Shown here piece after piece: positions 4,637 through 8,413 of a stretch of 13,293 nucleotides of DNA. The stretch comes from a virus. Taxonomy: Duplodnaviria; Heunggongvirae; Uroviricota; Caudoviricetes. Made by a program: the position numbers and the translations under genes. Location of the stretch: IMG/VR virus record IMGVR_UViG_2563366821_000011; one strand, given 5' to 3'. The stretch's first letter is position 1; each line of letters opens with the position of its first letter. Under the pieces are notes generated by a model. That model searched no databases. It had not been told where the DNA came from and saw only the letters and a program-made list of their open reading frames with translations.

Positions 4637-6406
4637 ATGAATGCTGCCCTGACTGAACGACTGGTTTATGTCGCCCGCGCGGCACGTGACGCGGGGCATG
4701 GTAAACGCGGTGCAATATACGACGCTGCCTGTGCTGAACTTGGCATGTCCCGCGCCACTCTGCTGCGCAGGCTGAAGGAGGTCTCTGTGACTGATAAACG
4801 CAAAAAACGCGCCGATGCCGGGCGCAGCGCCCTGACCCGCGACGAAGCCGCGCTGATATCTGCCACACTGCGTGAGGCCACCCGCAAGAACGGTAAGCGT
4901 CTCTATTCCATCGCAGATGCAGTGGAAACCCTACGGGCTAACGGCTTTATCACCGCAGGCAGAACAGATGAAACCACCAGTGAGTTTTTCCCGTTGTCTG
5001 AAGATGCCATCAGCCGTGCTCTGCGTAACTATGGCCTGCACCCGGAACAACTGGATGCCCCTGCACCACATACCGAAGTGGCCAGTCTGCATCCCAATCA
5101 TGTCTGGCAGATTGACGCCTCACTCTGCACGCTTTACTACCTGAGCAATGGACATAAAGGGCTGCAGGTGATGGACAGCGCGAAGTTCTACAAGAACAAG
5201 CCCGCTAACCTTGCCCGTATCGCCAGTGACCGCGTGTGGAGTTACGAGATTACCGACCATGCCAGCGGCTGGATTTACGTTGAGTATGTGACGGGCGCGG
5301 AATCAGGTGAGAACCTGTGTTCTGTGCTTATCAACGCCATGCAGGAGCGTGGCGGCGCAGACGTGCTGCACGGCGTGCCGAAAATACTCTATCTCGACCC
5401 CGGCTCGGCAAACACCGCGGGTATGACGAAAAACATGTGCCGCTCACTGGGCATCGACCTGATAGCGCACAAGCCGCATAACGCCCGCGCCACCGGACAG
5501 GTGGAAAAGGCGCGTGACATTATCGAACGCAAGCTGGAGCCGGGGCTGAAGTTCCGGCCGGTTCACAGTCTGGAAGAACTCAACGCGCTGGCCGCGAAAT
5601 GGCGCAGCCACTTTAACGCCACGGCTGTTCACAGCCGCCACGGTAAAACCCGCACGGATATCTGGCTGAAGATTACTGCTGAGCAGCTGAAAAAAGCGCC
5701 TTCCGTTGAGGTATGTCGTGAACTGGCTGTGGCGGCACCAGAACTCCGCAAAGTCACGCCAAAACTTCGTGTCTCGTTCCGGGGCACTGAATTTGACGTA
5801 TCAACGGTACCGGGCGTACTGGTTGGTGAAAAACTGATGATTACCCGTAACCCATGGCGCAGCGATGTGGCACAGGTGGTTCTGACCGGTGAGGACGGCC
5901 ACGAGACGTTCTTCCTGGTCGAAGAGGTCAGAAAGAACGAGTTTGGCTTTGCTGAAGGCGCGGCGGTATTTGGCGAAAGTTACAAAGCCCTGCCGGAAAC
6001 CTCGGCACAGATGGCGGCAAAAGAAACTGAAGCGCTGGTTACCGGTACAGACAACGCTGCAGATGCAGCCGCCGCACGCAAGGCGAAGGCGCTGCCGTTC
6101 GGCGGGCGGCTTGACCCGTATAAACATATCGACGACACCACACTTCCGGCCTATATGCCGAAGCGTGGTCAGGCCTCTGACGTACGCGGGCCGCGCACTG
6201 AACAACGTCCCATGACTCATGTGGAGGCCGCGAAAGCCCTGCGCGATAAGTTCAGCGCCGACGGCCTTACCTGGACGCCGGAACATTACCGCCAGTTAAC
6301 GGCACAGTACCCGGACGGCGTACCGGAAGCTGCACTGGATGAAGTCATGGCCACGCTGACCACGCCGGCACGCAGCAGTGTTATCAGCATTGTTAACGGC
6401 AACTGA
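4637..6406 (+). CDS. Mu-like DDE transposase (A protein), 589 aa
   Basis: N-terminal HTH, then an rve-type catalytic core with D160 (HVWQIDAS), D254 (LYLDPGS) and E290 (ATGQVEKA; D-35-E spacing). Located immediately upstream of the AAA+ B gene. Confidence 0.9.
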   Translation: MNAALTERLVYVARAARDAGHGKRGAIYDAACAELGMSRATLLRRLKEVSVTDKRKKRADAGRSALTRDEAALISATLREATRKNGKRLYSIADAVETLRANGFITAGRTDETTSEFFPLSEDAISRALRNYGLHPEQLDAPAPHTEVASLHPNHVWQIDASLCTLYYLSNGHKGLQVMDSAKFYKNKPANLARIASDRVWSYEITDHASGWIYVEYVTGAESGENLCSVLINAMQERGGADVLHGVPKILYLDPGSANTAGMTKNMCRSLGIDLIAHKPHNARATGQVEKARDIIERKLEPGLKFRPVHSLEELNALAAKWRSHFNATAVHSRHGKTRTDIWLKITAEQLKKAPSVEVCRELAVAAPELRKVTPKLRVSFRGTEFDVSTVPGVLVGEKLMITRNPWRSDVAQVVLTGEDGHETFFLVEEVRKNEFGFAEGAAVFGESYKALPETSAQMAAKETEALVTGTDNAADAAAARKAKALPFGGRLDPYKHIDDTTLPAYMPKRGQASDVRGPRTEQRPMTHVEAAKALRDKFSADGLTWTPEHYRQLTAQYPDGVPEAALDEVMATLTTPARSSVISIVNGN

Positions 6407-6416
6407 GGAGGAAAAC

Positions 6417-7583
6417 ATGCTGGTACTGAAGCAGCAACTGAAAGAGGCCCGTATCCCACAGGCGGTGGTGGCGAGAGCTGTCGATGTTTCTGAGGCCACG
6501 CTGGCCCAGATTGTGAATCATAACGCGTGGCCCCGCACCAGCCCCGGAGAAGTGCGCCGGCGTCTTGCGTCCTGGCTGGAAAGTCAGGGGATTGATACAA
6601 CGAAGAGTTTTGATGCTGTACAGGGCGCAGCCACGCCCCGTACAGCGGGTACCACAGATAAAACGAGCCTCAGTGAGGAAGAGAATATGTTACTCAAAAA
6701 ACAGGTGTTATTTCCAGCAACCAAAAAAGCGTTTGGTCTTTTCCGTGACCCGTTCGCCGATGAAGCCATGCAGGGTTCTGATGATGTGTTCACCACCCCG
6801 GACATTCGCTACGTGCGTGAGGCGTTGTACCAGACAGCCCGTCATGGTGGGTTTATGGCCGTCATCGGTGAGTCCGGTGCGGGTAAATCCACGCTGCGCC
6901 GCGACCTGACTGAACGTATCAACCGCGAGAATGCGCCGGTAATTGTTATCGAGCCATACATCATCGCTATGGAAGACAACGATGTGAAAGGGAAAACCCT
7001 GAAGGCAGCAGCGATTGCCGAAGCCATTATCAGTACCATCGCACCACTGGAAAGCATCAGACGCAGTCAGGACGCCCGCTTTCGCCAGTTGCATCGCGTC
7101 CTGAAAGACAGCAGCCAGGCGGGGTTCAGCCACGTTTTGGTGATTGAGGAGGCCCACAGTCTGCCCATTCCGACACTGAAACACCTCAAACGCTTTTTTG
7201 AGCTGGAGTCCGGTTTCAAAAAACTGCTGTCCATCGTGCTGATTGGCCAGCCGGAACTGGCGACAAAACTGTCTGAACGCAATATGGAAGTCCGTGAAGT
7301 CGTTCAGCGTTGTGAGGTGGTCGAACTTCTGCCTCTGGACAATAACCTTGAAGAATTTCTGACGTTCAAACTGCAACGGGCCGGTAAACAACTGACGGAC
7401 ATTATGGACGCCAGCGCAGTGGATGCCATACGTGCCCGCCTGAGCAATCCGGGAAGTCATCGTAAAAATATGGTCAGCCTGCTGTATCCGCTGGCCGTCA
7501 GTAACCTGGTGATAGCCGCCATGAATCTGGCCGCTGAAATCGGGGTTCCACAGGTCAACGCTGACGTTGTCAAAGGGGTTTAA
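6417..7583 (+). CDS. Mu B-like AAA+ ATPase (transposition target DNA activator), 388 aa
   Basis: SD GAGGAGG directly upstream. N-terminal HTH (QAVVARAVDVSEATLAQIVN), Walker A GESGAGKST and Walker B VLVIEEAH. An in-frame internal ATG with its own SD lies at 6687. Confidence 0.85.
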   Translation: MLVLKQQLKEARIPQAVVARAVDVSEATLAQIVNHNAWPRTSPGEVRRRLASWLESQGIDTTKSFDAVQGAATPRTAGTTDKTSLSEEENMLLKKQVLFPATKKAFGLFRDPFADEAMQGSDDVFTTPDIRYVREALYQTARHGGFMAVIGESGAGKSTLRRDLTERINRENAPVIVIEPYIIAMEDNDVKGKTLKAAAIAEAIISTIAPLESIRRSQDARFRQLHRVLKDSSQAGFSHVLVIEEAHSLPIPTLKHLKRFFELESGFKKLLSIVLIGQPELATKLSERNMEVREVVQRCEVVELLPLDNNLEEFLTFKLQRAGKQLTDIMDASAVDAIRARLSNPGSHRKNMVSLLYPLAVSNLVIAAMNLAAEIGVPQVNADVVKGV

Positions 7584-7585
7584 TA

Positions 7586-7855
7586 ATGAAATCCACCACA
7601 GGTATCAACCAGCAAATCAGCAAAGTGCAGTCAGCCATTATGGCGCTTAAGGCGACGAACACGGATGTACAAAGCATCACCATCAGGGGTAACAAACCTG
7701 TCATCCGCGTTTCCCGGAGTGCGCATTGCATGCGCATGCTTGAGCAGGGAAAGGCCTGTTATCTGTATACCGGACATGACCACAGGGGATATTTCCGTCA
7801 GGGCGTTTTCGAACTGCACGGCTGTCGCGTCGTGTGGCCGGAATCTTTGTGGTAA
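7586..7855 (+). CDS. Hypothetical early protein, 89 aa
   Basis: ATG 3 nt after the B stop, with SD-like AAGGGG upstream. No recognisable motif. Confidence 0.55.
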   Translation: MKSTTGINQQISKVQSAIMALKATNTDVQSITIRGNKPVIRVSRSAHCMRMLEQGKACYLYTGHDHRGYFRQGVFELHGCRVVWPESLW

Positions 7856-7882: not shown

Positions 7883-8413
7883 ATGGCAAAAAGTACAAAA
7901 GGGGCAAAACGTATCAAAGCCGCAGCAGCACTCTGGGTGCCGGGGACACGCGAAGAGGTCATTGAGGGAATCAGACTGCTTGGTGACGCGCAACGTGAAC
8001 TGGTCAGGGCTGAAACAGAAATGAATGACACCATTGGCGACATCACTGCACGTTATGCCCCGCTCACCGAGAGCCTGAAAAAACGCATGGCCGAACTGCA
8101 GTCCGGTATCCAGACATGGTGTGAGGCGCACCGTGATGAACTGACCGGCAACGGGAAGGTGAAGTTCGCTAACCTCACCACCGGCGAGGTGCAGTGGCGA
8201 AACCGTCCGCCGTCAGTCAGCATTCGCGGGGCGGATAATGTCATTGAACTGCTGAGACGTCTGGGGCTTGAGCGCTTTATTCGTGTAAAGGAGGAAATAA
8301 ATAAAGATGCCATTCTGAATGAAAAAGAGGCCGTGAAAAATATTCCCGGTATTTCCATTAAAAGCGACATTGAGGATTTTTCAATAATTCCTTTTGAGCA
8401 GGATGTGCAGTAA
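7883..8413 (+). CDS. gam: Host-nuclease inhibitor Gam (Mu Gam family, Ku-like DNA-end binding), 176 aa
   Basis: Strong SD AGGAGG. Co-linear with Mu Gam as I recall it: MAKxxKRIKxAAAxxVP..., TEMNDxI, WCEAxRDELT, PPSVSIRGxDxV, GLxRFIRxKxEINKxAIL and C-terminal EDFSIIPFEQ. Confidence 0.9.
   Translation: MAKSTKGAKRIKAAAALWVPGTREEVIEGIRLLGDAQRELVRAETEMNDTIGDITARYAPLTESLKKRMAELQSGIQTWCEAHRDELTGNGKVKFANLTTGEVQWRNRPPSVSIRGADNVIELLRRLGLERFIRVKEEINKDAILNEKEAVKNIPGISIKSDIEDFSIIPFEQDVQ

Follow-up and report, generated by a model that had tools for sequence, protein, structure and literature searches.

The 13,293-nucleotide stretch of viral DNA analysed here (IMG/VR virus record IMGVR_UViG_2563366821_000011, Caudoviricetes; hereafter the window, 13.3 kb in full) comes from a BcepMu-type (Bcepmuvirus-like) transposable prophage, of which it forms the early region, and is 98.9% identical to Escherichia phage PhiKM. 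Its genes are ordered A (rve), B (AAA_22), and gam (Table 1); the counterpart of gene A in phage PhiKM is labelled 'transposase'. The subject of the present analysis is gene B, which harbors, besides its annotated start, a second in-frame ATG preceded by a Shine-Dalgarno (SD) sequence. A shorter protein without the N-terminal domain (B-short) is probably initiated there and made beside the full-length protein (B-long). A megablast comparison found the segment at 6300-7600, which contains B, in 637 of the 5,426 complete E. coli genomes, mostly at 95-100% identity; 621 of the 637 carried it at 95% identity or higher, and strain 2016C-3878 matched it at 100%. No genome had more than three copies. 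Of the 706 matching places, 705 were chromosomal. The E. coli prophage copies of B are labelled with a single product, 'ExeA family protein', a name given by the Prokaryotic Genome Annotation Pipeline (PGAP).

As judged by its sequence, B belongs to the ExeA-type AAA_22 ATPases and corresponds to the 'DNA transposition protein' of transposable phages of the BcepMu/B3 type. It matched Pfam AAA_22 (E = 3.6e-20) and phrog_296 'DNA transposition protein' (E = 2.2e-93), and over residues 1-388 it shared 50-60% identity with BcepMu gp08, B3 ORF11, and JBD25 gp13. An AlphaFold2 model of B was built on 24 homologues; it was mediocre, with a mean predicted local distance difference test score (pLDDT) of 66, and was used only for domain boundaries. 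The modelled N-terminal helix-turn-helix (HTH) domain contained helices at residues 3-10, 15-21, 26-35, and 43-56 (pLDDT 82-86), and Serratia homologues carry a precomputed HTH_3 (PF01381) assignment for this domain. Disorder was predicted at about residues 62-93, with pLDDT of 30-37 at residues 69-93, and Met91, the residue encoded by the internal ATG, stands at the end of this disordered linker. A PDB sequence search with B yielded P-loop hits only, and the matches that Foldseek found for the model were all generic (AAA+, Cdc6, and TnsC-like), with template modelling scores of 0.41 or less. An earlier note on this DNA had placed the internal ATG 'just before' Walker A; this wording is inexact, as Walker A lies 60 residues past Met91. 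Walker A lay far from the N-terminus in the collected relatives too, and because all of these were full-length, the long spacing represents a family trait and no insert.

Table 1. Position and basis of the features of genes A, B, and gam in the window.
Feature	Position	Strand	Basis
Gene A, DDE (rve) transposase, 589 aa	4637-6406	+	Open reading frame (ORF) list; Pfam rve E = 9.7e-9
Initiation region of B-long: SD GAGGAGG (6405-6411), 5-nt spacer, ATG 6417-6419	6405-6419	+	Sequence
Full-length B coding sequence (B-long), 388 aa, 42.9 kDa	6417-7583	+	Translation; AAA_22, phrog_296
N-terminal four-helix HTH domain, residues 1-58	6417-6590	+	AlphaFold2 model; HTH Pfam hits weak
Variable disordered linker, about residues 59-86	6591-6674	+	Low pLDDT; varying length and sequence among homologues
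Internal SD core GAGGA, -12 to -8 from internal ATG	6675-6679	+	Sequence
Internal in-frame ATG (Met91), proposed B-short start	6687-6689	+	Sequence; conservation
Predicted B-short coding sequence, 298 aa, 33.1 kDa, whole ATPase module without HTH domain and linker	6687-7583	+	Frame and stop shared with B-long
A/T-rich codon ramp TTA CTC AAA AAA CAG GTG TTA TTT CCA	6690-6716	+	Low G+C content at third codon positions (GC3), weak structure
Walker A GESGAGKS, residues 151-158	6867-6890	+	Columns invariant in alignments A2 and A5
Walker B-like VLVIEEAH, residues 240-247	7134-7157	+	E245, A246, and H247 invariant (alignments A2 and A5)
gam	7883-8413		

The ATGs at 6417 and 6687 lie in the same frame, 270 nt apart, and the sequence of the second SD-ATG is as the earlier note had described it. 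GAGGAGGAAAAC (6405-6416) directly precedes the first ATG and GAGGAAGAGAAT (6675-6686) the second, and the corresponding SD duplex energies were -12.1 and -6.5 kcal/mol, respectively. The stop codon of gene A (TGA, 6404-6406) overlaps the SD sequence of B. The peptide 'EEEN', which had been read in front of both starts, is not B coding sequence at the first of them, where it corresponds to the A stop codon TGA plus a 10-nt spacer; the likeness is that of two purine-rich SD stretches, which were identical at 12 of 15 nt (20 of 36 over -12 to +24). The octamers encoded at the two starts also resemble each other (MLVLKQQL at 6417-6440 and MLLKKQVL at 6687-6710), and in 21 of 28 representatives the N-terminal octamer ML.LK..L found its best within-protein BLOSUM match in the internal MLL.KQ.L. 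As these sequences are related, the resemblance amounts to one short consensus likeness (M, L, K, L; four of eight positions) and is suggestive only; it may have arisen from convergent start-region constraints or from an old repeat.

About 5.5% of the codon positions in B had an upstream SD duplex at least as strong as -6.5 kcal/mol, and B contains seven internal in-frame ATGs, so that the probability of at least one ATG with such an SD sequence is about 0.33 for the window alone. The significance of the internal start therefore rests on the relatives of B. These comprised, first, the B genes of 13 phages (PhiKM, KP12, Phi06_2974, BcepMu, phiE255, B3, Ps59, JBD25, PM105, phiSHP3, Bise, Ralstonia YO107_2, and Microcystis Mae-JY22). 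To these were added 80 bacterial genomes with B at 52-95% protein identity, from Enterobacterales, Pasteurellaceae, Burkholderiales, Rhodocyclales, Neisseriales, Xanthomonadales, Desulfovibrionaceae, and Kordiimonadaceae. A non-redundant set of 43 representatives with less than 85% identity was used for the nucleotide tests.

Conservation in homologues had been set beforehand as the point on which the proposal of an internal start could be refuted, and both the internal ATG and its SD sequence were found to be conserved. An ATG occupied the position of Met91 in 92 of the 93 loci, which span alpha-, beta-, gamma-, and deltaproteobacteria as well as phages, and the sole exception was cyanophage Mae-JY22, in which the Met occurs six residues later. 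All of the 43 representatives contained the internal ATG, and all 43 carried an SD 4-mer core upstream of it, vs. 10.7% at the other codons of the same genes. Met91 heads a strongly conserved peptide, MLLxKQxLxPxxKKxFGLFRDPF, and the conservation of ATG and motif held in all 118 close database homologues with the motif. Among the best 150 proteins from a library of 1.84 billion, a Met near the start of the motif was found in 104 of 104 motif-bearing representatives; the single representative without a Met at the site (P0196) reads GAGGAGGATTTTGTC-GTG. A chance pairing of an in-frame ATG with a purine-rich run of Glu codons in one sequence, which the numbers for the window alone would have allowed, is refuted by these comparative data and has a negligible probability.

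A more serious alternative is that the site is conserved as a protein motif only, in which an acidic patch followed by Met-Leu-Leu-x-Lys-Gln serves, for instance, as a helix on which the transposase or neighbouring subunits dock. The SD sequence would then be accidental, and rare codons would slow ribosomes at the domain boundary for co-translational folding. The motif is indeed far better conserved than the preceding linker, and short helices were modelled after or around Met91 (residues 87-93 and 100-105) with moderate confidence. Furthermore, TTA and CTA, the codons found after the ATG in many copies, are rare in high-GC hosts, as pausing would have it. The position of the Met itself argues against this explanation, since its register relative to the downstream K-Q varied by one to three residues (MLLRKQ, MLRKQ, MIRKQ, and MSILLRKQ). 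Such a shifting register fits a start codon, as expected, and would be odd for a packing residue. A second subfamily with the pattern EP[ED]-M-L-[ST] (e.g., EPEMLS; phage Mae-JY22 and two metagenomic loci, L098 and L100, the phage locus being L011) places its Met six residues past the position of Met91 and has GGAG or GAGG 7 nt ahead of it, which points to an internal start that can shift its position.

The codons in front of the ATG distinguish further between the two explanations. The consensus of the 43 representatives at -11 to -5 was A-G-G-A-[G/C]-G-A (AGGAGGA), and in every gene examined the internal ATG had the best SD sequence among all internal in-frame ATGs. In Burkholderia-type copies, the internal SD sequence equalled that of the annotated start (-10.3 vs. 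-11 kcal/mol). Codon -4 was GAG, AAG, CAG, ACG, CCG, TTG, or ATG; it thus encoded amino acids of opposite charge as well as neutral ones (E, K, Q, T, P, L, and M) while the final G was kept, which is not expected of a protein motif. It ended in G in 41 of the 43 representatives (26.4 expected), and AAA, GAA, and CAA were absent. The two exceptions were from Serratia and showed a one-codon shift with a rare GGA Gly codon giving AAGGAG. The SD core was also retained where the encoded residues were not an acidic run, as in KKAVD (AAGGCGG), DLEAL (TTGGAGGC), and PEGID (CCGGAGGGC); that such contexts still yield AGGAG or GGAGG likewise speaks against selection on the protein alone. Relatives with unrelated N-terminal regions kept the core as well (KGPAD, AAAGGACC; TTGVDS, ACAGGAGTA).

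Downstream of the ATG, codon +2 was TTA in 26 of the 43 representatives, vs. a TTA usage of about 5%. In the 20 genes with a GC3 of at least 0.75, codon +2 was TTA in ten and CTA in four, and elsewhere in these genes TTA accounted for one of 918 Leu codons. GC3 was expressed as the deviation from the expectation given the amino acid and the codon usage of each gene. This measure replaced a count of 'pairs with identical codon', which was dominated by common codons and was uninformative. In 8-codon windows, the corrected GC3 was the lowest of the whole gene in those starting at +1 (-0.30; column standard deviation 0.10). It was also low at -11 to -5, and its sole positive excursion was at the two SD codons. 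At the annotated start it was only -0.055, a shallow dip that fits a coupling of B-long to A. Local RNA folding in 50-nt windows reached its weakest point at codons -3 to 0, with z above 0 in all 43 representatives (mean z 1.65), and a structure minimum of the gene that is centred on the ATG is a further point that the protein-motif explanation does not account for.

Immediately past the internal ATG, the window contains a run of six A residues (6696-6701; CTC AAA AAA CAG) that is present in the enterobacterial clade only. A dnaX-type -1 frameshift at CTC AAA AAA C was considered and rejected: the heptamer C AAA AAA is non-canonical, no significant structure was found (z = 0.28), and the A-run is missing in most relatives, which read CTG CGC AAA CAG.

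Several observations weigh against a selected internal start. The SD sequence in the window is of moderate strength (-6.5 kcal/mol). Met91 is located inside the strongly conserved peptide MLLxKQxLxPxxKKxF, and its invariance alone is not discriminating. Synonymous reshuffling of codons -6 to -1 did not weaken the SD sequence (median p 0.41, Fisher p 0.39); it yielded equally strong ones, as a protein motif would predict. Given [E/K/Q]-[E/D]-[E/D], the strength of the SD sequence approximately follows host codon usage, and the SD signal could be partly a by-product of the acidic patch. Synonymous diversity around the site was low within the close enterobacterial clade (0.06-0.09 vs. a mean of 0.163) and was not the minimum of the gene. 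The representatives are phylogenetically related, and the quoted tail probabilities overstate their independence. Finally, three database proteins that appeared to be natural short forms starting from Met91 (P0125, P0185, and P0212) were rejected as truncation artefacts, their ORFs being open to the contig end. Because the reshuffling test was negative, the argument for an internal start rests on the spelling of codon -4, the TTA codon, GC3, and RNA structure, measures that do not condition on the acidic residues, and not on SD energy alone.

Genes that begin at the site were found in prophages of Lonsdalea iberica and L. quercina. In both, a non-coding spacer of 195 nt lies between gene A and a B gene of 297 aa without an HTH domain, which starts with ATGGAGGCAAGG-ATG-TTA-TTG-AAA, the same site as the internal start of the window. 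The Lonsdalea B has lost its HTH domain and still matches Pfam AAA_22. The spacer (L039:2303-2509 and L037:2369-2575) is GC-rich and 91% identical between the two species. The ratio of nonsynonymous to synonymous divergence (dN/dS) was 0.076 for the short B (dS 0.19) vs. 0.099 for A, which indicates purifying selection. The start and the dN/dS of these genes show, therefore, that an HTH-less ATPase is under selection and presumably works, and that the site works as its start. Genes starting at this position are difficult to explain by a protein motif, and, weighed against the points in its favor, the explanation by a protein motif alone is considered unlikely.

The alternative raised in the earlier note, that the site is the footprint of an ancestral fusion of a small HTH gene to B, stood in part. 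As an origin it fits the data. Stand-alone ExeA-type profiles (TIGR03015 and phrog_2630) begin only at about residues 100-114 of B, and the N-terminal regions have been swapped among relatives, non-homologous ones being joined at residues 70-95. In its stronger form, in which the old ribosome binding site and start of an ancestral ExeA-type ATPase gene are a functionless relic, it is contradicted by the conservation of synonymous sites. A relic would decay synonymously over 45-55% protein identity, whereas the SD core, TTA, low GC3, and weak structure were kept across alpha-, beta-, gamma-, and deltaproteobacterial copies with GC3 from 0.43 to 0.91. A decaying footprint is therefore very improbable. 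A metagenomic contig (SRR29693899_13206, L105) encodes the two parts apart, the HTH in an ORF of 83 aa and the ATPase in one of 317 aa; the latter begins at the conserved internal SD-ATG. This arrangement speaks for a fusion. However, the split coincides with an A9 run (L105:2444-2452), where the HTH and ATPase frames switch; a genuine frameshift, slippage, or an error in sequencing may have caused it, and it is not used as firm evidence. Plausibly, an HTH module was fused to an ExeA-type ATPase gene, and the old start was kept by selection.

The two-isoform proposal of the earlier note, a full-length protein with the HTH domain and a shorter ATPase-only form, is thus supported by the conservation of the ATG and the SD core, the nucleotide signatures, and the short-only genes of Lonsdalea. 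It is likely that B holds a selected internal initiation region that gives B-short beside B-long; both the production of B-short from the full-length gene and its ratio to B-long are inferred. The internal initiation region would consist of the SD core GAGGA, the ATG at 6687, and the unstructured A/T-rich ramp at the boundary of linker and ATPase. Ribosomes starting at ATG 6417 would produce B-long with HTH domain, linker, and ATPase. This start is probably translationally coupled to transposase A, because it lies 10 nt past the A stop and the two overlap in many relatives (among 25 representatives, nine had a 1-nt overlap, and stop and start lay within 15 nt in 23). De novo ribosome binding at the internal site would produce B-short, the ATPase module only.

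The roles of the two forms are a matter of speculation. B-short may supply the bulk of the ATPase subunits independently of the translation of A, and it may co-assemble with B-long, diluting the HTH-bearing subunits and tuning the function of the HTH domain. It is conceivable, although rather doubtful, that the two starts form a device for stoichiometry or regulation, in which B-long is made in step with A and B-short independently of it, from a strong and unstructured initiation site of its own. Mixed oligomers containing few HTH-bearing subunits would then govern how targets are captured, target immunity, or whether the phage integrates or transposes replicatively. Transposition ATPases (MuB, TnsC, TniB, and IstB) decide where and when DDE transposons insert. 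If a conserved isoform without the N-terminal domain is made, phages of the BcepMu/B3/JBD type deliberately produce both versions of such an ATPase. Pseudomonas phages in wide laboratory use belong to this large family, as does a prophage in about 12% of complete E. coli genomes. The result also bears on annotation, as every record examined gives B a single product.

Other features were observed in and around B. An ORF of 89 aa (7586-7855), labelled 'HI_1482 family protein' or 'hypothetical protein' by PGAP, begins 2 nt past the B stop, and a small ORF was located directly 3' of B in all annotated relatives. Among 13 close enterobacterial relatives, synonymous diversity at codons 348-366 of B (7458-7514) was far below that of any other part of the gene (0.014 vs. 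a mean of 0.163); recent recombination over this stretch or an element embedded in it could be the cause. One NCBI protein (P0001, 493 aa) is identical to the B of the window plus a tandem repeat of its last ~105 residues; the repeat probably stems from misassembly or from duplication in the recent past.

B shares with MuB its place directly after transposase A and ahead of gam, as well as its plan of a four-helix HTH N-domain, a flexible linker, and an AAA+ module, and both proteins match Pfam AAA_22. In MuB, the four-helix HTH N-terminal domain is flexibly linked to the AAA+ module, and the role of this domain 'warrants further investigation' (PMC11292022). On the other hand, no pairwise similarity was detected between the two proteins (BLASTP E = 2.4), the Phage-MuB_C domain (PF09077) is found in MuB and not in the B of the window, and the B gene of Mu contains no internal start codon with an SD sequence of -5 kcal/mol or stronger. 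For these three reasons, the B of the window is not a member of the MuB family. The earlier note had described the segment ahead of Walker A as longer than in MuB. In B, the distance from the N-terminus to Walker A is indeed greater by about 50 residues, but without pairwise similarity and with the MuB C-terminal domain missing, 'insert' is not a meaningful statement of homology. The direct homologues are the B proteins of BcepMu, phiE255, B3, JBD25, and PM105 (phrog_296), which share 50-60% identity over their full length and have the N-domain, the linker, and the internal SD-ATG in common with the B of the window. The annotated records among the 13 phages gave a single product each, and none marked an internal start in B. 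A full-text literature search returned no report of isoforms for this B, MuB, TnsC, TniB, IstB, or any other transposition ATPase, and its one hit on an internal start concerned the protease/scaffold gene.

Genes with two starts that encode N-terminally truncated isoforms include those of Tn5 (Tnp and Inh), IS21 (long and short IstA), T7 (gp4A and gp4B), ClpB (95 and 80 kDa), and the protease/scaffold gene I/Z of Mu. An internal start of the Mu-type protease/scaffold gene is mentioned in the literature (PMC4378225). As in these genes, B is one ORF with two SD-ATG sites in frame and a common C-terminus, and the predicted B-short lacks an N-terminal domain of the DNA-binding type. Like Tn5 Inh and ClpB-80, B-short would retain the core through which oligomers form and could enter assemblies together with B-long. 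Unlike in Tn5, the dual-start gene is that of the ATPase partner of a DDE transposase and not of the transposase itself, and B-short is a predicted protein. Also in contrast to Tn5 Inh, a separate internal promoter was not detected: no sigma-70-like promoter for a separate short transcript was found on the plus strand inside B. If the two starts did form a regulatory device of the kind considered above, B-short would be a built-in modulator of the ATPase, comparable to Inh for the transposase of Tn5, and nature would have provided in it an experiment on what the MuB-type N-terminal domain does. The dual-start mechanism belongs to an already known class, of which B, with its predicted short form, would be a further case in a transposition ATPase.

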